A stretch of 64,000 bases of DNA. Origin: Candidatus Spongiisociaceae bacterium. GTDB taxonomy: Bacteria; Actinomycetota; Acidimicrobiia; Spongiisociales; Spongiisociaceae. Both the position numbers and the translations under genes were made by a program. Below are positions 35,815 through 45,492 of this stretch, piece after piece (the first letter of the stretch is position 1; the number at the start of each line of letters is the position of its first letter). The notes under the pieces are model-generated. The model was not told the DNA's origin, did not search any database, and was given only the letters and a program-made list of their open reading frames with translations. The DNA lies in NCBI GenBank assembly GCA_965262915.1, contig OZ253564.1, forward strand, positions 1,984,001 to 2,048,000. The letters run 5' to 3'.

Positions 35815-36924
35815 GTGCTTGGCGGGATACTGATGGTGATAGCGATCTCGGCTTTCATCATCGTTCACGAAGCTGGCCACTTCCTGGCGGCTCGGGCGAC
35901 CGGTATGAAGGCGACCGAGTTCTTTCTGGGTTTCGGTCCGCGGATCTGGTCCTTCCGCCGGGGCGAGACCGAGTTCGGTGTGAAGGCCCTTCCCCTGGGT
36001 GGCTACGTGAGAATCGCCGGGATGAACGACCGGGAGCGGGTGGACCCGGCCGACCTGGACCGAACCTACCGGGAGAAGCCGTTCTGGAAGAAGTCCGTCG
36101 TGGTCCTCTCGGGGGTCACCCTCAACATGGTGATGGCGTTCCTCCTCCTGTTCGGCCTGTTCTGGTCATCGGGGATCATCGAGTTGACCACGACCGTGGC
36201 CAGGGTCAGTTCCGAGGTGGCGGAAGGAGTCCCTTCCCCGGCCGCCGAAGCCGATCTGCGGTCCGGCGACACCTTGGTGGCGATCGACGGGATCGAGCTC
36301 GCCGACTGGGATCACGCCGTGGAGGTGATCGTGGCCCGGCCCGGCAAGTCGGTGACCATCGATCTGGTGCGGCGGGGGGAGCACCGGTCGATCATCGCCA
36401 CCCTCGGTGCGTACCACCCGGTGACCGGGGAGGCGGCCGGCTTCCTGGGGGTGTCCCCGGGTGCGAGCCGCGTTGCGGTCGGCCCGGTCCGGGCCGCCGG
36501 CCTGGCTTCCAGAGCCGAGTGGTCGATCATGACCGGCACCATCGAGGCGGTGGGGCGGATCCTGAGACCGGAGTCGTTGGTGGAGCTGGGGGGTGCGCTG
36601 GCGGGCCGGAGCGACGTGTCGGACGAGATACGACCGGTCAGCCCGATCGGCTTGGTGCAGATCGGAGCCCAGGTTTCCCGGGTGGGGATCGGGAACATCG
36701 TCTTCCTCCTGGCGGTGGTGAACGTGACGCTGGCTATTTTCAACAGCCTTCCGCTCTATCCCCTGGACGGCGGTCACTTCGCGGTGGCCCTGTACGAGAA
36801 GGTGACCCGGCGACGGGTGGACGTCCGCCGTCTCATCCCGTTGGCGGTGGCGGTGGTGATGCTGATGCTGTTCCTCGGGCTGGTGGCCGTGGTCCTCGAC
36901 ATCGTCAACCCCCTGACGCTGTGA
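35815..36924 (+). CDS. rseP: RIP metalloprotease RseP (M50, PDZ)
   Basis: HEAGH, GFGP, LPLGGYV, PDZ segment, FNSLPLYPLDGGH. Confidence 0.93.
   Translation: MLGGILMVIAISAFIIVHEAGHFLAARATGMKATEFFLGFGPRIWSFRRGETEFGVKALPLGGYVRIAGMNDRERVDPADLDRTYREKPFWKKSVVVLSGVTLNMVMAFLLLFGLFWSSGIIELTTTVARVSSEVAEGVPSPAAEADLRSGDTLVAIDGIELADWDHAVEVIVARPGKSVTIDLVRRGEHRSIIATLGAYHPVTGEAAGFLGVSPGASRVAVGPVRAAGLASRAEWSIMTGTIEAVGRILRPESLVELGGALAGRSDVSDEIRPVSPIGLVQIGAQVSRVGIGNIVFLLAVVNVTLAIFNSLPLYPLDGGHFAVALYEKVTRRRVDVRRLIPLAVAVVMLMLFLGLVAVVLDIVNPLTL
36418..36924 (+). repeat. 507-bp direct repeat, copy A (3' part of rseP)
   Basis: near-identical to 44322-44828; about five substitutions seen by eye. Confidence 0.95.
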
Positions 36925-36969
36925 TCTGAGGGGTGTCGGCGCGCCGGAGTAACCACCGGAAGACGAATA

Positions 36970-38742
36970 TCAGTTCCGACGGGCTGTTTGGAAAAGGGTG
37001 CTGACTGGGCCTTCCCCCGAGTAGGTGATGGTGAGGGTCTCGGTGGCTCGGGTCATCGCCACGTACATCAGCCGTTTCCGTTGTTCATCCGGGGCGTCGT
37101 CATCCTTCTCTCGTACCCAGATATCGTTGGCTCCGCCGACGATGACATGTCTGAACTCCAAGCCCTTGAGCAATTGCAGGGTCGCCACTCGTACCTTGCC
37201 CTCACCCGAGACCCCCCTGTCCCGACTCTTTGTCGCGTCGAAAGCGTTTGGTATCAGGTGCAGCACTTCTTCCCGCACGTTCCTCGACCCGCTCAACACG
37301 ACGATATTGTCCGCCGCAGCCCCGGCGCCCAGGAGTTCTTCCACCTTCGCGGCGATGGCTCTCGCCTCTGTTTTGAAGTCGGCGCATTCGAAAGTGACCG
37401 GTACATCGCCGATGCGGGCGCCTTCTTCGGGCATGACCAATACGTCGAGGTCGTCGGGCCGGCGGTCCTCCGGTGATTCTCGATCAAGGCCCAACAGTAT
37501 CTCCAATGCGAGACCGAGTATCTCGCGCGTATTGCGATAGTTGATTCTCAGAACGGTGGAGCGGCCCCGGGCGGTTATCTCCGGCGGGTTCCAGGTCATC
37601 CGCCGCCGGTAGACATTCTGGGCGCTGTCGAGGGCCATCACGAAGTGATCCCGCCCCGGCTTCAGCATGGCCCAGGCGAGGTCGAGTCCCGTGGTATCGA
37701 GATCCTGCGCCTCGTCGACCAGCACCATATCGAACCGCTCGGAGGCTTCCAGGGCCCGGGCCACCTCGAGAGCTTCTCGCCTCCGTCTGTCGAAGTCGGG
37801 GCGTTTCCTGTAGTTCCGGCCCGTATTCCGCTTCTCGGCGGGGAGCATTCGGTACGCCAACGAGTCGACCGTACTGACATCCACGTTCCCGGCGTCCCTC
37901 ATCTCCTGGGCCAAAGCGAGCGACAGAGCCCTGTTGAAGCAGAGCAGGAGGATGCGCCACTGCGGGAAATGGTGGGCGATGTACTTGGCGCGGTGGGTGA
38001 GGATCAGTGTCTTGCCGCTGCCTGCCACCCCTCGGATCAGCCGGTACCCGGGTCCGAGGTGTCGGGCCAGTTGCTCCTGCATGCGGTCCAGGATCCGGAT
38101 CAGTCTTTCGCTGTCGCGGTCGGGCGGTGGAAACATCGGCCCTCCCTCGGCGCCGCCGATGATGATCTCGGGATTAACTGTCGCCCGGGCGCCGGTCTCA
38201 TCCTCTTCGGTCAACGGAAGGTCCCGACCGCCGATGATCCGGTGTATTGCCGGCCGCAGGGCCTCGCGGGTGAAGTCCTCTTCGGTGAGTACGGGCAGAT
38301 CGGAGTTTTTTCGCCGGATATCCTGTCTGGGTGTTCTGGGCAGAGCCAGAGCATGCACCACAGGTAGTGCCTGGATTGAACGGTGATCCAGGCCATCACG
38401 GAGCGCCAAGGTCCGCTCCGCTATCGAGGTCCGTACCCGGCTTGGATCGATTTTCTTGCGCCGACCCCACCGGCCCCTTGTCAACAACGGCGCCTCCAAA
38501 ACAGCGACGCCGGCTTCGGGGTCGAGCATCACCAGGTATGCCTCAGAGTCGTCGCCCTCGCCGTCGGCGCGCGGCAGATCCTCGAATTGTCGTTGGAGCG
38601 CCGCGGTGTCGCCTTGACCGGTCCTCTCCAGCCATACGGTCACCTCGTCGGGGAGGAACTCACGCAGGGCCTTGGCAACCGACTGCAACCGGGCCGGGAG
38701 GTCGTTACGGCTGGGGATGTTTTTGGGTTGGAGGAAGGCCAT
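36970..38742 (-). CDS. SF1 (UvrD-like) helicase with degenerate NERD-like N-terminal domain
   Basis: GVAGSGKT, LVDEAQD, LRINYRNT, LKGLEF, LMYVAMTRA; N-terminal EAYLVMLDPEAGVAVLEAP; start ATG 38742. Confidence 0.8.
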   Translation of the reverse strand: MAFLQPKNIPSRNDLPARLQSVAKALREFLPDEVTVWLERTGQGDTAALQRQFEDLPRADGEGDDSEAYLVMLDPEAGVAVLEAPLLTRGRWGRRKKIDPSRVRTSIAERTLALRDGLDHRSIQALPVVHALALPRTPRQDIRRKNSDLPVLTEEDFTREALRPAIHRIIGGRDLPLTEEDETGARATVNPEIIIGGAEGGPMFPPPDRDSERLIRILDRMQEQLARHLGPGYRLIRGVAGSGKTLILTHRAKYIAHHFPQWRILLLCFNRALSLALAQEMRDAGNVDVSTVDSLAYRMLPAEKRNTGRNYRKRPDFDRRRREALEVARALEASERFDMVLVDEAQDLDTTGLDLAWAMLKPGRDHFVMALDSAQNVYRRRMTWNPPEITARGRSTVLRINYRNTREILGLALEILLGLDRESPEDRRPDDLDVLVMPEEGARIGDVPVTFECADFKTEARAIAAKVEELLGAGAAADNIVVLSGSRNVREEVLHLIPNAFDATKSRDRGVSGEGKVRVATLQLLKGLEFRHVIVGGANDIWVREKDDDAPDEQRKRLMYVAMTRATETLTITYSGEGPVSTLFQTARRN

Positions 38743-38785
38743 ATAGTCCGGATAACCTTGTAGGTCGGCGGCAGAGTCACCCGGA

Positions 38786-41700
38786 CTATAGGTAGGCCCG
38801 CCCATCTTCGGTGATCCCCAGGGTCTCGTAAGCTGTCCCGTCGTACTCGTTCTCCGTGGTGATTGCCAGGCCCTCCTCTACCAACTGGTCTATGAGCTGC
38901 TCCACGCCATCCGTACCCAGAATGGACAGCCGCCCGAATGCCGGATGCTTCTTGAGCCTCTCCGGAAGTCCGTACGTTTTGCCGACAAGGGTTCGGACCA
39001 GGTTCCGGTGTGAGTAGGGCTGGTGGGTGTCGTAGAGCAGCTGCAGGACGACGGTGCGCTTCGGCAGGGAGGTGAGTATGGCTTCCTCGGTGACGTGGCT
39101 TCCGGCCCAGGGGCGGTCGAGCGAAGCGCATAGGTCGCATCGCCCGCACTCCTCAGATACATCGGCGTCCAGGTAGTCGAGCATCGCTCGACGGCGACAA
39201 CCATGTGCACGGAGGGCGAACCTCTTGGCGCGCTTCGACTTCTCGGCTACCACCTTCTGACGGTCCTTGACCTTCTCGTCGATCGCCCCCCAGTCCGGTT
39301 CGGAGAGTCGCTCCAACACCCAGGCGTACTTCCAGGCGCTGAACCCGAGGATGTCCCGTCGGTTGAGTTCCAGTAGGTCGGCGGCTATCCGCGCAGGCGG
39401 TCGGCCCAGCTGCTGTCCCCAGGTCGCAGCTCGGTATTCTTCGCTTCCGAGACGTTCGACCAGGCGGACCAATTCCCGCCCTCGTCTCGCCAGTTTTGGA
39501 TGTGCCACCTCCAATTCCTCGATCTCCCGCTCCGTAGTGCCCGTGATCGACACGCGCCCACGCCACACGGTGTCGAGGTGCCGTTGCAGCCCGCCTGCTT
39601 CTTGCAGATAGTGGACGGCCAAGGCGAGGCCCACGTTCCCTCGGTCGGTCTCATCGTCGCCTCCGTCGAGTTCATCGGGGTCGTAGGGGTTGGTTCCTGT
39701 TCGAATCCGCGACCAGACTCGCCGCACCTGCCCCGGGGCGGGGGCGGCGCCTCGGATGAAGTTCCTATGGATCGAACAGTCACCGGGCATCGTCAGCAGG
39801 ACCGCGGCGCCGGTCTTCGGCTCTTTGCCTTCGATGGCGCCTCGCGCCGCCCGTCCGGTTTCCTGGACGTACTCCTCGATGGTGGCGGGCATCTCGAGAT
39901 GGACGATCAGGGCTATATCGGGCTTGTCGATCCCCATCCCGAATGCCTTGGTGGCCACCACCACGTTCACCTCGCCGTGACGGAAGGCGTCCTCCACATG
40001 CCGGCGAGCCGGAGTCTCCATCCCGCCGTTGTACGGTCGGGCGTAGAGGCCGGCCGCCGTCAGTAGCCCGGCGATCCGGGTGGTGTCCTTGCGAGTAGGA
40101 ACGTAGACGATCGCGGGCTGGGAACGGAACGCCTCCACGATCTGGACCACCCGCAGATCCCGATCTTTGCGATCCCTGCATCGTTCGGTGTAGTAGCGGA
40201 TTTCGGGTCGGTCGGGGGAGAGGACGACCGCGTCGCCGGTCAGTTCCAGTTGGAGCGACCGCCGGACATCCTGGCGTACCTCCTCGGTGGCGGTGGCGGT
40301 CACCGCCAGGATCGGGGGACGCCGAGGCCCGTGCCGCTGTGTTGCGGATCGCTGCGCTCTGATGCGGTTCAGGGCTTGCGGGATGGTGGCGTATTCGGGC
40401 CGGAAGGAGTGACCCCACTGGGAGATGCAGTGTGCTTCGTCCACTGCGATCCTCGCCACCCCGATCCCCGATAACGTCTCGACGAACTCCTGGGACCAGA
40501 GCCGCTCCGGGCTGACGTACAGCAGCTTGTAATCGCCCCGCGCGGCGCCCCGGAGGACATCCCGCCACTCCCCCTGACCGACACCGCTGTGGATGGTGGC
40601 GACCTTGGCGATTCCGCGCGCTCGTAGGTTCTCGACTTGGTCGTTCATCAGGGCCCGCAGGGGTGAAATCACCAGGGTCAGCCCGGGAGAGAGGAGAGCA
40701 GGGATCTGGAAGGTGATCGACTTCCCCGATCCGGTGGGCAGCACGGCCAGGACATCGTCACCGCGGATGAAGGCCCCCATGGTCTCGCGTTGACCGGGTC
40801 GCCATCGCTCGAAACCGAACCGCCTCCGCACCTCGTCGAGCCGGTGCGCTATCATCTCATGGTCGGCGAGGTCGGCGTCGACCAGTTCCAATTCGGTGAG
40901 ATCGGCCCAAGGGTCGGCGCTGGTGATGGTCCGGAGCCGCTGCCGCATCTGTTCGTCGAAGGCTATGTCGCCCAGGTGCTCGGCGATCTGCCGATAGGCA
41001 TCCTCGGGCCGATTGGCCCTTCCCAGTCGGGGCGGGCCGGGCAGGGTCGCCAAGATTCTGTCCCGATACGGCACCGCCCGGCACAGCCGGTTGTCCAGCA
41101 CCACCGTGACTCCCCGGTCGTCCTCCGCCCTGATGAGGCGACCGACGCCTTGGGCGAACCGAAGGGCCGCTCTCGGCACCATGTAGTCGGCGAAAGGATC
41201 CTTCCCTCGGCGTTCCATGACCTCCATCCGGGCGCCCACAACCGGGTCGGCCGGGGAGTCGAACGGGATCTTCTCGATTATGAGCAGGCTCAGGGCTTCG
41301 CCGGGTATGTCCACCCCCTCCCAGAAGGATCGAAGGGCGAGGAGGCTGTTAGCCTGCTCCCGGCGCATTCTTTCCACCAGAGCGCCAGCCGAGTCGTCGC
41401 CCTGGGCCATCAATGGAATACCGCGGGCATCGAGGATGGGCCGTGCGTGATCCCGCACGAACTCCAACCGGTCTCGAGCGGTCATAAGGACCATTCCGCG
41501 ACCGTTCGTGAGGGTGAGAAGGCGCGGGATCTCCCCGGCGGCGGAGACCCTGAACTCCTCGATCAGCCGCGCCCGGGGAGCGGGCAGGTAGTCGGTCCGC
41601 AGCACCAGGTGGTTCTCGGCAAGCCGGGTGAACGGGCTGTCCAGAGCGGTGGGCCTCACCGCACCCAAGCCGAGAGTGTCGATCACATGGGCGAAACTGT

Positions 41701-43807
41701 CGCGCACCCTGAGGGTTGCCGAGGTCAGTATCGCGGCCTCGAGTGAGTTCCAGATGATCCGCAGACTGTGGGCGACCGATACCGGTGAACGTCGCAGCTC
41801 CCATGTCCAACCATCCTCGGTGTGGCCGATCTCTCCGATGGCGATCCACTTCTCCGGGTCGTAGGCTCTCAGTATCCGGCCGATTGTCCGGGAGGCCTCC
41901 CGAGCGTGACGTCCGAGCCGCCTGACCTCGCTCTCCATCCGGTGGCGGCGGTAGCGGCCCGCCAGGTCTTTGGGAAGGTTCACCCGGTTCAGCGCGTCGG
42001 CTATACCTCGCAGGGCTTGCCCGAGGTGCTTGCCGGCCCGGAGGACGCATCCGTATTCGGGGTGGTCGGTATCGATCCCGGGGCGGATGCGGTACGAAGC
42101 CGGGTGCTTATGGTCCTGTCGGGCGCCCGTGCGGACACGTAGGTATTCCACCAACGCCTTTCCGAAGCTCGCCGAGGCATCGTGCGCCGACGCCACCGTC
42201 TTGCGGATCTCGCCCAGGGGTTGCTCTCGCAGAGACCACTTGGCGGCGTTGGCCAAGCGTGTCACTGTTCCGCGACGGTGTTGCGGATCCCACAGTGCGT
42301 CGCACAGGGTCAGGAGGTCGTCCTCGGACACCGCCTCGGAGAGGGCATCAGTGGCGGCATCCTCCAAGTTGTGAGCCTCGTCCAGTATCAGCCGTTTCGA
42401 GTGATCGAGCCAGTCGTCCCAGCTCACGAGGAGGGCGTGGTTGAGGACGGCCACGTGGGCGTTGCGTAGCCCCTCGCGGGCCCGGCGGTGGAAGTCGAGA
42501 CGATCGAGAGGACCCCACGTCGGCCGCGACGAGTTCTCCACTTGGAGCAGGAGACGGAAACGTCGTAGGACCTTCAGCCTTTTCTCGATAGCTCCGGCAC
42601 GGAGATCGCTCCAGTCGCCGGTGGGTGTCTGTGCAACCCACGCGCAGATCATGGCGAGAGTAAGTCCGATGTCCTGCGTGTACTCCCCGGGGGATTCCGC
42701 CAAGGCATCGAGTTCTCCGGCGAGCGAGTCCAGGCTGATGTAGTTGTGCTGACCTTTGAGAAGAACCGAGATGAACGGATCGATTTCGGTTCCGAGTTCC
42801 TCCAGGGCGGCCATCACCTGTTCTTGGAGGACCTTGGAGTGGGGGGCGACGATCACGGTGTCACCGCCGGCGCGGGCGTACTCGATCGCCGGGACCAGGT
42901 AGGCGAGAGTCTTGCCTGTGCCGGTGGGCGCCTCGATCAAGTGTTTGCCTCCCTTGCCCTGGGCAAGGGTGATGGCGATATGCCGCGCCATCTCGATCTG
43001 CTGTTTTCTGGGTTGGCGCGTCCGAGCCATCAAGACGCCGCCCTCTTCGAACTTCTCGACTACCGCATCGACGTCGAAGACTCCCGTAGGAGGGTGGCGG
43101 TCCGGCGGCTCGTACGAGGCGACCGTGTCCTCAAGGGCACCAGGTTCCGGTTGTGCTGTCAGGAAACCTGCCCAGGGATGGTTTACGGCGCCGAGCAACC
43201 AACGCTGCAACCGGCGCGCCGGGTCGTCTTCCTCCATATGCGCGAGCAACCGGGTAAGCACCCTGCTCAATAGCCGTGCGTCGTTGAGGGCGCGGTGTCG
43301 ATCGCGGGGGTCGTCCTCGAATAGATGCCCGGTCAACTCGTCGAGGCTTCGGCCCGCCGGCGGACAGCTACCGTCGACGTTCGCGGTGAGACCTTTACCG
43401 GCGCGGGGGAAGACCAGATGAGCCAACTCGAGGGTGTCGAGACGAGTCGTGTCCGGCGGGGATAACCCAGTCTTCTCTGCGGCCGAATCGAGGAGTGGAA
43501 AGTCGTATCCGAAACCATTGTGGGCGATCAGGGGACGGTCTCCCACGTAGTCGTAGAAATCCCGCAAGGCCTCGGCGAGCACCGGCGCCGAGGCGAGTTG
43601 GTCATCGGTGATCCCGGTGAGTTCCCGTGTGAACTCCCGCAAGGGCCGTGTCGGTCGGACCAGGGTTGCGAATCTGTCGATCGCCGTTTCGTCGGAGATG
43701 AGGATGGCGCCGATCTCGATGATCTCGTGCTCCGGAGGATCGGACCGATCGGCGTTGGCCTCCAAGTCGAAGACGACGTATTCGGTGATGCGTTGCGGTT
43801 CTGGCAT
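38786..43807 (-). CDS. DEDDh 3'-5' exonuclease / DinG-type helicase / RecQ-type helicase triple fusion
   Basis: Exo: VFDLEAN, AHNGFGYDF, HRALNDA. DinG: EAPTGTGKT, LDEAHNL, TSATL, FWEGVDIPG, QGVGRLIR. RecQ: VLPTGSGKS, VDEAHCISQWGHSFRPEY, ATKAFGMGIDKPD, QETGRAAR, CRR...CGRCDLC. Confidence 0.9.
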   Translation of the reverse strand: MPEPQRITEYVVFDLEANADRSDPPEHEIIEIGAILISDETAIDRFATLVRPTRPLREFTRELTGITDDQLASAPVLAEALRDFYDYVGDRPLIAHNGFGYDFPLLDSAAEKTGLSPPDTTRLDTLELAHLVFPRAGKGLTANVDGSCPPAGRSLDELTGHLFEDDPRDRHRALNDARLLSRVLTRLLAHMEEDDPARRLQRWLLGAVNHPWAGFLTAQPEPGALEDTVASYEPPDRHPPTGVFDVDAVVEKFEEGGVLMARTRQPRKQQIEMARHIAITLAQGKGGKHLIEAPTGTGKTLAYLVPAIEYARAGGDTVIVAPHSKVLQEQVMAALEELGTEIDPFISVLLKGQHNYISLDSLAGELDALAESPGEYTQDIGLTLAMICAWVAQTPTGDWSDLRAGAIEKRLKVLRRFRLLLQVENSSRPTWGPLDRLDFHRRAREGLRNAHVAVLNHALLVSWDDWLDHSKRLILDEAHNLEDAATDALSEAVSEDDLLTLCDALWDPQHRRGTVTRLANAAKWSLREQPLGEIRKTVASAHDASASFGKALVEYLRVRTGARQDHKHPASYRIRPGIDTDHPEYGCVLRAGKHLGQALRGIADALNRVNLPKDLAGRYRRHRMESEVRRLGRHAREASRTIGRILRAYDPEKWIAIGEIGHTEDGWTWELRRSPVSVAHSLRIIWNSLEAAILTSATLRVRDSFAHVIDTLGLGAVRPTALDSPFTRLAENHLVLRTDYLPAPRARLIEEFRVSAAGEIPRLLTLTNGRGMVLMTARDRLEFVRDHARPILDARGIPLMAQGDDSAGALVERMRREQANSLLALRSFWEGVDIPGEALSLLIIEKIPFDSPADPVVGARMEVMERRGKDPFADYMVPRAALRFAQGVGRLIRAEDDRGVTVVLDNRLCRAVPYRDRILATLPGPPRLGRANRPEDAYRQIAEHLGDIAFDEQMRQRLRTITSADPWADLTELELVDADLADHEMIAHRLDEVRRRFGFERWRPGQRETMGAFIRGDDVLAVLPTGSGKSITFQIPALLSPGLTLVISPLRALMNDQVENLRARGIAKVATIHSGVGQGEWRDVLRGAARGDYKLLYVSPERLWSQEFVETLSGIGVARIAVDEAHCISQWGHSFRPEYATIPQALNRIRAQRSATQRHGPRRPPILAVTATATEEVRQDVRRSLQLELTGDAVVLSPDRPEIRYYTERCRDRKDRDLRVVQIVEAFRSQPAIVYVPTRKDTTRIAGLLTAAGLYARPYNGGMETPARRHVEDAFRHGEVNVVVATKAFGMGIDKPDIALIVHLEMPATIEEYVQETGRAARGAIEGKEPKTGAAVLLTMPGDCSIHRNFIRGAAPAPGQVRRVWSRIRTGTNPYDPDELDGGDDETDRGNVGLALAVHYLQEAGGLQRHLDTVWRGRVSITGTTEREIEELEVAHPKLARRGRELVRLVERLGSEEYRAATWGQQLGRPPARIAADLLELNRRDILGFSAWKYAWVLERLSEPDWGAIDEKVKDRQKVVAEKSKRAKRFALRAHGCRRRAMLDYLDADVSEECGRCDLCASLDRPWAGSHVTEEAILTSLPKRTVVLQLLYDTHQPYSHRNLVRTLVGKTYGLPERLKKHPAFGRLSILGTDGVEQLIDQLVEEGLAITTENEYDGTAYETLGITEDGRAYL

Positions 43808-43879
43808 GCCGTCGGCAGGCTATCAGGCACTCGTCTTCGGAGACGTAGACGGGTCACTGCGTTCTCACCGCGTCAAAGA

Positions 43880-43967
43880 CCGTAACCGTGATGATGCTCA
43901 TGGCGCCCCGGCCCCTGGGGTTGCCGGTGGTCGTTGTCGACCTTTCTTCAACCCCCTGACACTGTGA
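43880..43967 (+). repeat. eroded third copy of the rseP 3' end
   Basis: TCAACCCCCTGACACTGTGA (43948-67) matches 36905-36924 at 19/20; weaker similarity upstream (GTGATGATGCTCATG...GTGGTCGTTGTCGAC). Confidence 0.75.
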
Positions 43968-44092
43968 CGGCCGGTGGTCGGTGACCTGTGACGGGTGCAT
44001 GGTTCACGTACTCGTCGGACGCCGCGGCTACCATCAACTACGGAACCGGCACTCCACCGGTGGCGTGATACACCAGAAGTCACACTATCCCC

Positions 44093-44166
44093 GCCCATGT
44101 AGCTCAGGGGATAGAGCAACTGCCTCCTGAGCAGTAGGGTCGCAGGTTCGAGTCCTACCGAAGGCA
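44093..44166 (+). tRNA. tRNA-Arg (anticodon CCT), degenerate, probable pseudo-tRNA
   Basis: D arm GCTC-AGGGGATA-GAGC, anticodon arm ACTGC-CTCCTGA-GCAGT, T loop TTCGAGT; two mismatches in the acceptor stem (GCCCATG/CGAAGGC) and one in the T stem. Confidence 0.75.
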
Positions 44167-44185
44167 CTTCCTGAATTCGAGCGGA

Positions 44186-44321
44186 GCATGGTTGACCACC
44201 TCCAGCAGACGGTGCCCGTTGATAACGGGGGTTATAACGGTCTATGTAGCGGCGTGGACGGGATACGGCCTAGCAACGGGAGCCGGCCACGTCTTCCCGT
44301 ATCTCGCGTGGATGGTCCTGG
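44186..44321 (+). pseudogene. truncated diverged paralog of the 44890 membrane protein (N-terminus only)
   Basis: WLTTSSRRCPLITGVITVYVAAWTGYGLATGAGHVFPYLAWMV vs WFTTGVRRHPWLAGLTVAYVAVWTAYGLVTGTGQVYTYLAWMI. Confidence 0.8.
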
Positions 44322-44828
44322 CCGGCGACCGGGGAGGCGGCCGGCTTCCTGGGGGTGTCCCCGGGTGCGCGCCGCGTTGCGGTCGGCCCGGTCCGGGCCG
44401 CCGGCCTGGCTTCCAGAGCCGAGTGGTCGATCATGACCGGCACCATCGAGGCGGTGGGGCGGATCCTGAGACCGGAGTCGTTGGTGGAGCTGGGGGGTGC
44501 GCTGGCGGGCCGGAGCGACGTGTCGGACGAGATACGACCGGTCAGCCCGATCGGCCTGGTGCAGATCGGAGCCCAGGTTTCCCGGGTGGGGATCGGGAAC
44601 ATCGTCTTCCTCCTGGCGGTGGTGAACGTGACGCTGGCTATTTTCAACAGCCTTCCGCTCTATCCCCTGGACGGCGGTCACTTCGCGGTGGCCCTGTACG
44701 AGAAGGTGACCCGGCGACGGGTGGACGTCCGCCGTCTCATCCCGTTGGCGGTGGCGGTGGTGATGCTGATGCTGTTCCTCGGGCTGGTGGCCGTGGTCCT
44801 CGACATCGTCAACCCCCTCACGCTATGA
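44322..44828 (+). repeat. 507-bp direct repeat, copy B (5'-truncated rseP)
   Basis: near-identical to 36418-36924; ends CTCACGCTATGA. Confidence 0.95.
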
Positions 44829-44889: not shown

Positions 44890-45492
44890 GTGAGCGCGCG
44901 GGGAGGATGGTTCACGACAGGCGTCCGGCGGCACCCCTGGCTGGCCGGCCTCACGGTGGCCTACGTGGCGGTATGGACGGCCTACGGTCTCGTGACGGGT
45001 ACCGGCCAGGTCTACACCTACCTCGCCTGGATGATCTGTGCTGTCGGCCTCGTGATGTACGTCGACCGCCGGGTCCGCTTCTCCACCCATGTGCTGGTGT
45101 TGCTCTGCATCGTCGGGTTCTGCCACATGGCCGGAGGCAACGTCTACATCGAGGGGGTCATCCTCTACGAGCAGACCTGGTGGGGATACATCCGCTACGA
45201 CCACCTGGTCCACGCCTTCGGTCTGGGATCGGCCGGGCTGGCCGTCTGGGAGGCCACCCGCCGCATGCTGTCCACCGCCGGTCCCTGGAGCGTCGCGGTG
45301 GTGGTGGTCCTGGGTGCCAACACGGTCGGGGCCTGCATCGAGATCGGGGAGTACCTAGCCAGCCTGCTCATCCCGGGCGTCAGAGTGGGCGGTTATGCCA
45401 ACAACATGCAGGACCTGATAGCCAACCTGGCGGGAGCCCTGGTAGCCGCCTGGTGGGCTGCCCGGGCATCGCGCCGGACGCCCCTCTCCTGA
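44890..45492 (+). CDS. DUF2238-like multi-pass membrane protein
   Basis: hydrophobic helices; HMAGG, RYDHLVHAFG, EIGEY, GGYANNMQDL.AN..G. Confidence 0.65.
   Translation: MSARGGWFTTGVRRHPWLAGLTVAYVAVWTAYGLVTGTGQVYTYLAWMICAVGLVMYVDRRVRFSTHVLVLLCIVGFCHMAGGNVYIEGVILYEQTWWGYIRYDHLVHAFGLGSAGLAVWEATRRMLSTAGPWSVAVVVVLGANTVGACIEIGEYLASLLIPGVRVGGYANNMQDLIANLAGALVAAWWAARASRRTPLS

Follow-up and report, generated by a model that had tools for sequence, protein, structure and literature searches.

A giant exonuclease and double-helicase protein, encoded next to a third helicase, forms a conserved gene pair in a group of marine Actinobacteria

The 64,000-nt stretch of DNA analysed here (the window; contig OZ253564.1, positions 1,984,001 to 2,048,000) comes from a Candidatus Spongiisociaceae bacterium whose 5.05-Mb genome, designated G000, is assembled as a single contig on which the window occupies G000:C1:1984001-2048000. 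Two co-oriented genes on its minus strand are the subject of this report. The first, referred to as the fusion gene, is an open reading frame (ORF) at 38786-43807 that runs without interruption in the window for 1673 amino acids and joins a DEDDh exonuclease to a DinG-type and a RecQ-type helicase; the second, the partner gene, lies directly downstream and encodes a superfamily 1 (SF1) helicase with an N-terminal domain that resembles a decayed NERD nuclease. A preliminary description made from the letters of the window had singled out both genes, and the three modules of the fusion (as Pfam domains and in every motif then quoted) and the UvrD-like helicase beside it (by Pfam) are indeed present. 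The two constitute a real, conserved gene pair of a group of marine Actinobacteria, and their parts are as follows:

38786..43807, minus strand: fusion gene, 1673 amino acids, comprising DEDDh exonuclease, DinG (predicted pseudo-iron–sulphur, or pseudo-Fe-S, type) and RecQ (Pfam, NCBIfam, motifs in 20 full-length relatives)
43262..43777, minus strand: DEDDh 3'-5' exonuclease domain, residues 11-182 (Pfam RNase_T, E 2.4e-19; DLE, HNGxxxD and HxAxxD in 20/20)
41024..43069, minus strand: DinG/XPD-type superfamily 2 (SF2) motor, predicted to lack an Fe-S cluster, about residues 247-928 (PRK08074, Helicase_C_2, PDB matches, one Cys)
39761..40831, minus strand: RecQ helicase core, residues 993-1349 (TIGR00614, 313.7 bits; PDB 4tmu, E 9e-78)
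38789..39760, minus strand: RecQ C-terminal region with a family-specific insert of ~160 amino acids, a Cys4 zinc finger and a weak RQC-like end (Pfam, conserved Cys)
39128-39274, minus strand: Cys4 zinc finger of the RecQ part, residues 1512-1560 (RecQ_Zn_bind, 27 bits, cut-off 25)
36970..38742, minus strand: partner gene, 590 amino acids, putatively inactive NERD-like N-domain and compact SF1 UvrD-like helicase core (Pfam, PADLOC, alignment, AlphaFold2, Foldseek, hhalign)
38128-38742, minus strand: putatively inactive NERD-like N-domain of the partner, residues 1-205 (hhalign, AlphaFold2 model)

In Pfam terms, the DinG part of the fusion is made up of ResIII (residues 265-353) and Helicase_C_2 (762-922, E 2.3e-34), and the RecQ part of DEAD (1003-1178, E 5e-41), Helicase_C (1222-1322) and RecQ_Zn_bind (1512-1560); the RQC match is weak (16.1 bits, below the cut-off of 23) and Pfam finds no HRDC. 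Amongst NCBIfam models, residues 247-926 come closest to the Bacillus-type exonuclease–DinG model PRK08074 (419.8 bits), whilst residues 994-1349 exceed the cut-off of the RecQ subfamily model TIGR00614 (313.7 against 219.8 bits). The equivalog cut-offs are missed, both those for the exonuclease–DinG proteins known as ExoDinG (PRK08074, 419.8 against 789 bits; TIGR01407, 372.2 against 547.7) and that for bacterial RecQ (TIGR01389, 380.8 against 640.2). Searching the PDB by sequence returned RecQ (4tmu, E 9e-78) together with the DinG proteins of S. aureus (8zef, E 3.6e-38) and E. coli (6fwr, E 4.5e-33). Neither the fusion nor the partner has a Pfam match to the RecB-type PD-(D/E)xK nuclease family PDDEXK_1.

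The catalytic motifs are kept across 20 full-length relatives: those of the DEDDh exonuclease, the Walker A, DEAH and motif VI of DinG, motifs I, II and VI of RecQ and the four zinc-binding cysteines (C1537, C1554, C1557 and C1560). The sole exceptions are DEAN in place of the RecQ DEAH in G004, GFGKS in G000b (the second fusion of the window's genome) and VPTGTGKT in G007. It had been remarked in the preliminary description that the DinG part has too few cysteines for the usual 4Fe-4S cluster, and this is borne out, with one cysteine between Walker A and DEAH in the window fusion and 0-2 in all 20 family members. The scarcity is accounted for by a pseudo-Fe-S state of the kind known for ExoDinG proteins of Bacillales and Lactobacillales (passages in PMC11981726 and PMC12525004), to which the DinG part of the fusion can, judging by its residues, be assigned. 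ExoDinG from B. subtilis and S. aureus is described in the same passages as having no Fe-S cysteines, possessing 3'-5' exonuclease activity and lying outside LexA control.

The partner begins at 38742 rather than 38805, since the N-termini of the family all read MAFLxPxNIP, and this leaves a gap of 43 nt to the TAG stop codon of the fusion at 38786-38788. It matches UvrD-helicase and UvrD_C in Pfam, and its Walker A (GSGKT) and Walker B (DEAQD) are invariant in the family. A single-sequence AlphaFold2 model was discarded (predicted local distance difference test score, pLDDT, of 33) in favour of an alignment-based one (pLDDT 80.5, predicted template modelling score 0.82), in which the N-domain has an alpha-beta-beta-beta-alpha-beta order and the SF1 core is compact; with this model Foldseek retrieves SLFN11, PcrA, UvrD and Rep, and Dna2 further down.

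The N-domain itself is recognised only indirectly. Pfam NERD (PF08378) matches none of 63 partner family members at E<=1, and amongst 1.84 billion representatives the domain has only 50 sequence relatives, which judging by their lengths look like full-length family members or fragments; in ESM Atlas features, 27 of 30 matches are NERD clusters, which counts as a lead only. The link comes from a 574-amino acid protein of the genome G747, encoded divergently next to the gene pair there, that possesses both a genuine Pfam NERD domain (E 1.6e-11) and a UvrD core: hhalign aligns the partner profile with it over its full length (probability 99.6%, E 5.8e-25, 503 columns), placing the partner's 'LEAP' over the NERD 'LEAK' and an A or P over the NERD aspartate. 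The catalytic lysine is replaced by proline in 19 of 19 partners and the glutamate varies (E/Q/A/S/D), also within clade A (defined below). The N-domain is thus a NERD homologue that has lost the nuclease triad (D...ExK), in agreement with the degenerate NERD domain first proposed for it.

In public protein collections the partner has 777 relatives, labelled 'AAA family ATPase', '3'-5' exonuclease' or 'DEAD/DEAH box helicase'. It is 28-31% identical to NERD-helicases encoded on E. coli plasmids and matches the PADLOC candidate C3a187 'NERD+UvrD' (E 4e-45). Three partner variants (P0202, P0212 and P0219) carry an HRDC domain, to which we attach little weight as a sign of coupling to RecQ because HRDC also occurs on other SF1 helicases, mycobacterial UvrD2 for example. 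No longer proteins in which the partner is fused to something else were seen at E<=1e-20, which is weak evidence.

Fusion and partner make up a conserved two-gene operon that is lineage-typical in one Acidimicrobiales family (f1). They lie side by side in the same orientation at 21 of 21 loci from 18 genomes, which answers for these loci the question, put in the preliminary description, whether homologues of the fusion travel with the NERD–UvrD gene; the two clusters are the sole genes universal across these loci, and the same adjacency is seen in one additional locus (L032) and in G747. Full-length fusions are encoded by 17 of 24 other genomes of the family, and the same 17 have the partner directly downstream on the same strand. 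Taken over the 29 family genomes the fusion is present in 20 (16/19 amongst the high-quality ones), and by genus, leaving the window's genome aside, in 7/7 for g1, 2/2 for g3, 3/3 for g4, 7/12 for g7 and 0/4 for g2, g5 and g6 together; it is found in 13/13 genomes of three genera (G000 apart). Two pairs per genome occur in G000, G001 and G022. The resident pair of G000, at C1:2628707-2635827, is 50-54% identical to the window pair and is surrounded by housekeeping genes.

Beyond the family the fusion is rare. No full-length match exists in 16 genomes of 11 other families of the order (the unpublished G039 included), and the fusion appears in 3 of 301 genomes of a class-wide sample (G217, G000 and a single f1 genome) and in 1 of 401 of a phylum-wide sample (G000 only). 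A search for related loci in genome contigs was dominated by the RecQ motif pattern, with 2 of 80 loci full-length. Public protein collections hold 624 relatives, named 'RecQ family ATP-dependent DNA helicase' and derived from Acidimicrobiales metagenome-assembled genomes, Ca. Poriferisodalis and Ca. Poriferisocius. The best 120 of these are 1477-1873 amino acids long, 117 of them with all three modules and the other three lacking only RNase_T, and one homologue on another contig is 97% identical. These numbers show that the fusion is not a misassembly, a possibility that had been raised at the outset.

A quick IQ-TREE analysis of 21 fusions splits them into clades A and B, each with a support of 100 in the Shimodaira–Hasegawa-like approximate likelihood ratio test (SH-aLRT). 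Clade A (12 rows) is drawn from g1 and g7, is roughly congruent with genus and includes the resident copy of G000, whilst clade B (nine rows) takes in g3, g4, G004, the window copy, whose branch is long (0.71), and the fusions G001a (from g1) and G022a (from g7). These last two are near-identical sisters with common flanking genes, which points to movement of the pair between genera. In the partner tree (FastTree, without G001b) the division into A and B recurs, as do the sister pairs; fusion and partner co-evolve. Apparent stops or frameshifts, some of which may be assembly errors, affect four of the 21 pairs (the fusion of G001a and the partners of G004, G018 and G013).

The window pair is a divergent second copy, horizontally acquired on a 7.4-kb strain-variable insertion at the stop codon of rseP. 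The backbone reads pyrH, cdsA, dxr, rseP (35815-36924), insertion, rseP 3' fragment, DUF2238 ORF, ispG and proS; the insert itself is 7397 nt long (36925-44321) and consists of the two genes, 285 nt, a tRNA-Arg(CCT) gene and 154 nt, with no integrase, relaxase, replication or phage gene amongst those 7397 nt. The preliminary description had the pair bracketed by copies of the rseP 3' end, which comparison within the window resolves into the following features:

36418..36924, plus strand: left copy of a 507-nt direct repeat, the 3' end of the intact rseP gene at 35815-36924 (sequence comparison in the window)
43945..43967, plus strand: third copy (21/23 nt) of the 23-mer that ends rseP, in the interval from the fusion start to the tRNA-like gene
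44093..44167, plus strand: second, foreign-looking tRNA-Arg(CCT) gene (ARAGORN; Rfam 49.7 bits, 3 mispairs)
44322..44828, plus strand: right copy of the 507-nt repeat, a truncated rseP 3' fragment in its native context, ahead of the DUF2238 ORF and ispG

The two long repeats differ at 5 of 507 nt, and the terminal 23-mer has exactly three copies in the 5.05-Mb genome, all of them at this locus. The tRNA gene has three non-standard stem pairs and shares 86% identity with the genome's other tRNA-Arg(CCT) gene (G000:C1:4155448). In all eight relatives examined, dxr-rseP-(DUF2238)-ispG-proS is contiguous, with neither helicase pair nor tRNA at the site. The DUF2238 membrane protein is the product of a small ORF (44890-45492, plus strand) that separates the rseP fragment from ispG and is found at the same place in five of the eight.

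The island is present in public metagenome runs of three studies, with 0-1 differences in its interior on contigs from all three. Contigs with an empty site were found in three of four runs (X1, X7 and X2), and DNA of the empty-site form is clearly real: on a contig of X1 and one of X7, position 36466 runs straight into 44371 with the 7904 nt between them missing, and X2 has a similar joint. Depths, which are indicative only and do not give cell shares, are 25.1 (X1) and 31.2 (X7) for the empty-site contigs against 3.3-6.0 for those of the island. X3, possibly the source sample, has the island form only, and contigs bridging the junctions are listed for X3 alone. Read at the five repeat differences, the empty-site contigs of X1 and X7 fit one homologous crossover somewhere between 36466 and 36652; since the same sites segregate in X2, compatibility is all that we claim. 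That the window copy was acquired follows from its long branch in clade B, the eight relatives without the insert, the empty-site contigs and the foreign-looking tRNA-Arg. The pair had at first been taken for accessory, which is right for the window copy and wrong for the pair as island-specific cargo, given its presence in 20 of 29 genomes and the resident pair of G000.

Elsewhere in the family the surroundings are of a different kind. Clade A pairs keep their synteny amongst metabolic genes, and in G000b, G001b and G002 the pair has as its neighbour a uvrA whose product includes a UvrB-binding domain. Across 19 loci (two spurious antisense ORFs of L113 left out), the 106 flanking proteins are dominated by short-chain dehydrogenases/reductases (SDR), dehydrogenases and monooxygenases, the commonest being SDR (12), 2-hydroxyacid dehydrogenase (5) and luciferase-like proteins (4), and no defence gene, methyltransferase, toxin or other determinant of self and non-self is seen within three genes either side. 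PADLOC gave generic matches only for these proteins: the DpdF, DpdJ and PsyrT models matched merely as helicase domains in 2-3 of them, and GajA, HamA, Csf proteins and PsyrA, like the system-specific partner genes of Hachiman, Gabija, Nhi, Dpd, type IV CRISPR and PsyrTA in general, are absent from the 25 commonest of the 72 PADLOC families matched. For the pair itself the matches are at domain level only (the RecQ-like DpdF and PsyrT, CasDinG and GajB). As a separate observation, HipA_C toxin-kinase domains occur within three genes of the pair in 3 of the 19 loci.

A scan of 36700-44400 for consensus promoters and terminators found nothing beyond the shuffled expectation. Upstream of clade A fusions (L113-L130; G000b) there is a conserved CC(G/T)GTA..(C)AT(C)G, with a TAnnnT-like -10 element 8-10 nt before the start codon, and TGATAGCCT stands at this spacing in the window copy; the arrangement suggests leaderless transcripts. 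In L114 (G002), a tandem GGTGAAT array of about 25 copies lies 60-330 nt upstream of the fusion, in the gap between uvrA and the fusion.

Outside the family, one homologue is from Thermus thermophilus HB27, whose megaplasmid pTT27 encodes a 1649-amino acid protein (TT_RS10770, WP_011174436.1) with the same three modules in the same order on one chain. It is 31% identical to the window fusion over query residues 7-1351 (tblastn), or 36%, 29% and 36% in the exonuclease, DinG and RecQ modules respectively, and its gene is flanked by Cas3 and Cmr genes. Like the window copy it is strain-variable; unlike it, there is no NERD–SF1 partner beside the gene and the C-terminal third does not align, and no Thermus plasmids figure amongst the organisms tallied for partner matches. 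Omelchenko et al. (2005, PMC1274311) noted this three-domain DnaQ-DinG-RecQ fusion computationally in HB27 and recorded its absence from HB8. Amongst the cas genes of HB27, a comparative paper on Thermus includes a 'DinG', which may be the same gene.

Two further relatives come from the genomes G217 and G747. The fusion of G217, 1759 amino acids long and 34% identical to that of the window, has no partner; its gene closes a tightly packed operon found in 1 of 30 genomes of its genus. The co-directional genes before it on G217:C36 (spanning L148:4733-10735 and L144:744-12740) encode a 2000-amino acid SF2–UvrD fusion, a 1016-amino acid ResIII protein, an 887-amino acid type III methyltransferase (PADLOC MTase_III, 906 bits) and two ORFs of 184 and 144 amino acids that match no family, and the whole looks like an undescribed, helicase-rich system akin to restriction–modification. 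The full pair is found in G747, of family f126, where the fusion modules are 40-52% and the partner 37% identical and the surroundings are mixed: at G747:C1 (L149:6507-17035) the canonical NERD–UvrD gene is divergent upstream, and a calcineurin-like metallophosphoesterase (468 amino acids) follows the partner in the same orientation. There is no full-length match to the fusion in 50,697 phage records.

The fusion is not the only such protein in this lineage. Outside the window, on the minus strand at G000:C1:4727652-4733012 (L145:1650-7013), a 1787-amino acid ORF joins a RecQ-like SF2 core (DEAD and Helicase_C, 313-638) to a UvrD SF1 helicase (1126-1604), and ORFs of 1784-1841 amino acids matching its RecQ part are present in G005, G006, G019, G021 and G022, so that two kinds of double-helicase fusion occur in the lineage.

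Set against characterised proteins, the fusion resembles ExoDinG (B. subtilis and S. aureus DinG; PDB 8ZEF/9II8) in that a DEDDh exonuclease at the N-terminus precedes a DinG core whose pseudo-Fe-S domain has 0-1 Cys, but differs in carrying a whole RecQ at the C-terminus and in scoring below the equivalog cut-off of 789. With bacterial RecQ (E. coli 1OYW, C. sakazakii 4TMU) it shares the RecQ core and Cys4 zinc finger, and with human WRN (whose architecture we take from the PDB molecule name) the combination of exonuclease and RecQ in one polypeptide; it departs from both in the insert of ~160 amino acids before the zinc finger, the weak RQC, the lack of a detected HRDC and the DinG motor between exonuclease and RecQ. 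The partner has full-length profile homology to NERD–UvrD-like helicases (PADLOC C3a187; the E. coli plasmid 'nuclease-related domain-containing DEAD/DEAH box helicase') but no Pfam NERD match in 63 members, with catalytic D and K replaced and E variable. Finally, the pair recalls RecBCD, AddAB and AdnAB in combining two motors, of opposite polarity if family membership is a guide, with a nuclease suited to DNA ends; it differs in lacking a RecB-type PD-(D/E)xK nuclease and in using SF2+SF2(+SF1) motors rather than SF1+SF1.

The preliminary description recognised no characterised system of this architecture. The fusion has already been noticed computationally, in HB27, yet it is uncharacterised: we found no experimental study of a DinG-RecQ fusion in the literature, although the supplementary tables of PMC11981726 and PMC1274311, outside our search, may list more members. 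A 2025 review of DinG-like proteins distinguishes ten subgroups and makes no mention of RecQ in its main text (PMC11981726). The constant pairing with an SF1 helicase bearing a seemingly inactive NERD domain, and the near-core status of the pair in an Acidimicrobiales family, appear undescribed, in that we found nothing about them in print.

The distribution of other helicases bears on what the pair might do. In the 20 fusion-bearing genomes of the family, all 23 Helicase_C_2 places lie inside fusions, and the four genomes of g2, g5 and g6, which have no fusion, encode instead a stand-alone DinG of ~670-700 amino acids. These stand-alone proteins are not recent unfused ancestors of the fusion, being only ~30% identical, and beside them there is neither an exonuclease domain nor a full RecQ gene nor the partner (near the gene in G008 there is only a weak, 26% SF2 match). 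AdnAB-like gene pairs (PDDEXK_1) are present in 29 of 29 family genomes. The idea that the module replaces AdnAB or RecBCD was rejected on that account, and with it the notion that RecBCD-like resection, as first proposed for the pair, is needed to fill a gap.

We infer the polarities, the substrates, complex formation and the role of the pair as follows. The RecQ motor would run 3'-5' and the DinG motor 5'-3', as members of their families do, so that at a DNA end, fork, D-loop or R-loop the two SF2 motors together could drive along both strands; the DEDDh site would trim the 3' end freed by the motors, and the partner would provide a third motor whose decayed NERD fold may contact DNA or protein. 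The role that we favour, though we rate it an even call, is accessory genome maintenance at stalled forks, R-loops and DNA ends, with the fusion standing in for a stand-alone DinG; the pair may also degrade foreign linear DNA. Counting for such a role are the presence of the fusion in 13/13 genomes of three genera, clade A synteny, the neighbouring UvrA, the metabolic flanks and the complementarity with DinG.

Several observations weigh against it, and the evidence on maintenance and defence pulls both ways. The module is dispensable and mobile: it has been transferred between genera (G001a/G022a), four of 21 pairs are apparently decayed (allowing for assembly errors) and both the fusion and DinG of any sort are missing from 5 of 12 g7 genomes. 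The AdnAB-like pairs in 29 of 29 genomes leave no resection gap to fill. Neither a LexA box nor an RecA-NDp motif was found in 330 nt upstream of 20 fusions, searched by regular expressions. The distant three-domain homologues sit in defence contexts (Cas3/Cmr in HB27; a type III methyltransferase and ResIII in G217).

The same observations feed the strongest alternative, an anti-phage or anti-plasmid module in which the helicase–exonuclease would load onto invading DNA, at free ends or at replication intermediates, and degrade it, with the partner as sensor or regulator, by a logic like that of RecBCD, Hachiman, Gabija and Nhi. We hold this to be possible, though less than probable. In its favour are the strain-variable insertion that bears the window copy (at depth 3.3-6.0 for the island in X1 and X7 and 25-31 for the empty site, again indicative only), the transfer between genera, and the extra (G000, G001, G022) and decayed copies. 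So are the sporadic occurrence of the distant homologues in defence neighbourhoods, HB8 having no such gene (PMC1274311) and G217 being 1 of 30, and the kinship of the partner with plasmid NERD-helicases and C3a187. The five g7 genomes without any DinG, the AdnAB-like pairs and the lack of SOS-type boxes would suit defence or conflict as well; ExoDinG too is not LexA-regulated (PMC11981726). What speaks against defence is that presence in 13/13 genomes of three genera with housekeeping synteny would be unusual for a defence system, that defence genes, methyltransferases and toxins are missing within three genes at the 19 loci, that PADLOC matches stop at the domain level, that the fusion replaces stand-alone DinG in its phyletic pattern and that the sole nuclease is a 3'-5' exonuclease.

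A scenario that spans both roles, and that we consider doubtful rather than likely, takes the pair for a new class of bipolar single-chain helicase–exonuclease, its 5'-3' DinG motor, 3'-5' RecQ motor and DEDDh nuclease united in one polypeptide, that would serve as an innate barrier to invading DNA in Acidimicrobiia and, without the partner, in Thermus and others; the SF1 helicase with its inactive NERD domain would perhaps be a regulator, and the module would have been domesticated for resident maintenance in one family.

It is improbable that the pair is cargo serving a decayed integrative element, in its replication, recombination or counter-defence, rather than the host: the three 23-nt rseP ends, the 507-bp repeats and the degenerate foreign tRNA-Arg do look like scars of repeated integration, and the Thermus homologue is on a megaplasmid, but within its 7397 nt the insert carries neither integrase nor relaxase and no replication or phage gene, the 50,697 phage records hold no full-length match and most family copies are chromosomal, syntenic and free of such flanking scars. 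An artefact of chimeric assembly or pseudogene read-through is hardly credible, for although the 507-bp repeat could mislead assemblers and junction-bridging contigs are listed only for X3, maybe the source sample, the motifs are conserved, the island interior recurs on contigs of three studies with 0-1 differences, and 117 of the best 120 of 624 homologues have all three modules, one of the homologues being 97% identical on another contig.

All four catalytic parts of the pair, namely the DEDDh exonuclease, DinG, RecQ and the UvrD-like helicase, belong to well-studied families, and it is their combination that is new to experiment; T. thermophilus HB27, which encodes a homologue of the fusion, is genetically tractable and naturally competent. 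If both SF2 motors act on the two strands of one DNA, RecBCD and AdnAB would have in the fusion a counterpart built on SF2 motors, which would at the same time be a bacterial parallel to the eukaryotic pairing of RecQ with an exonuclease in WRN. The same module is near-core in one family of Acidimicrobiales and defence-island cargo elsewhere, and so bears on how parts are exchanged between DNA repair and immunity.

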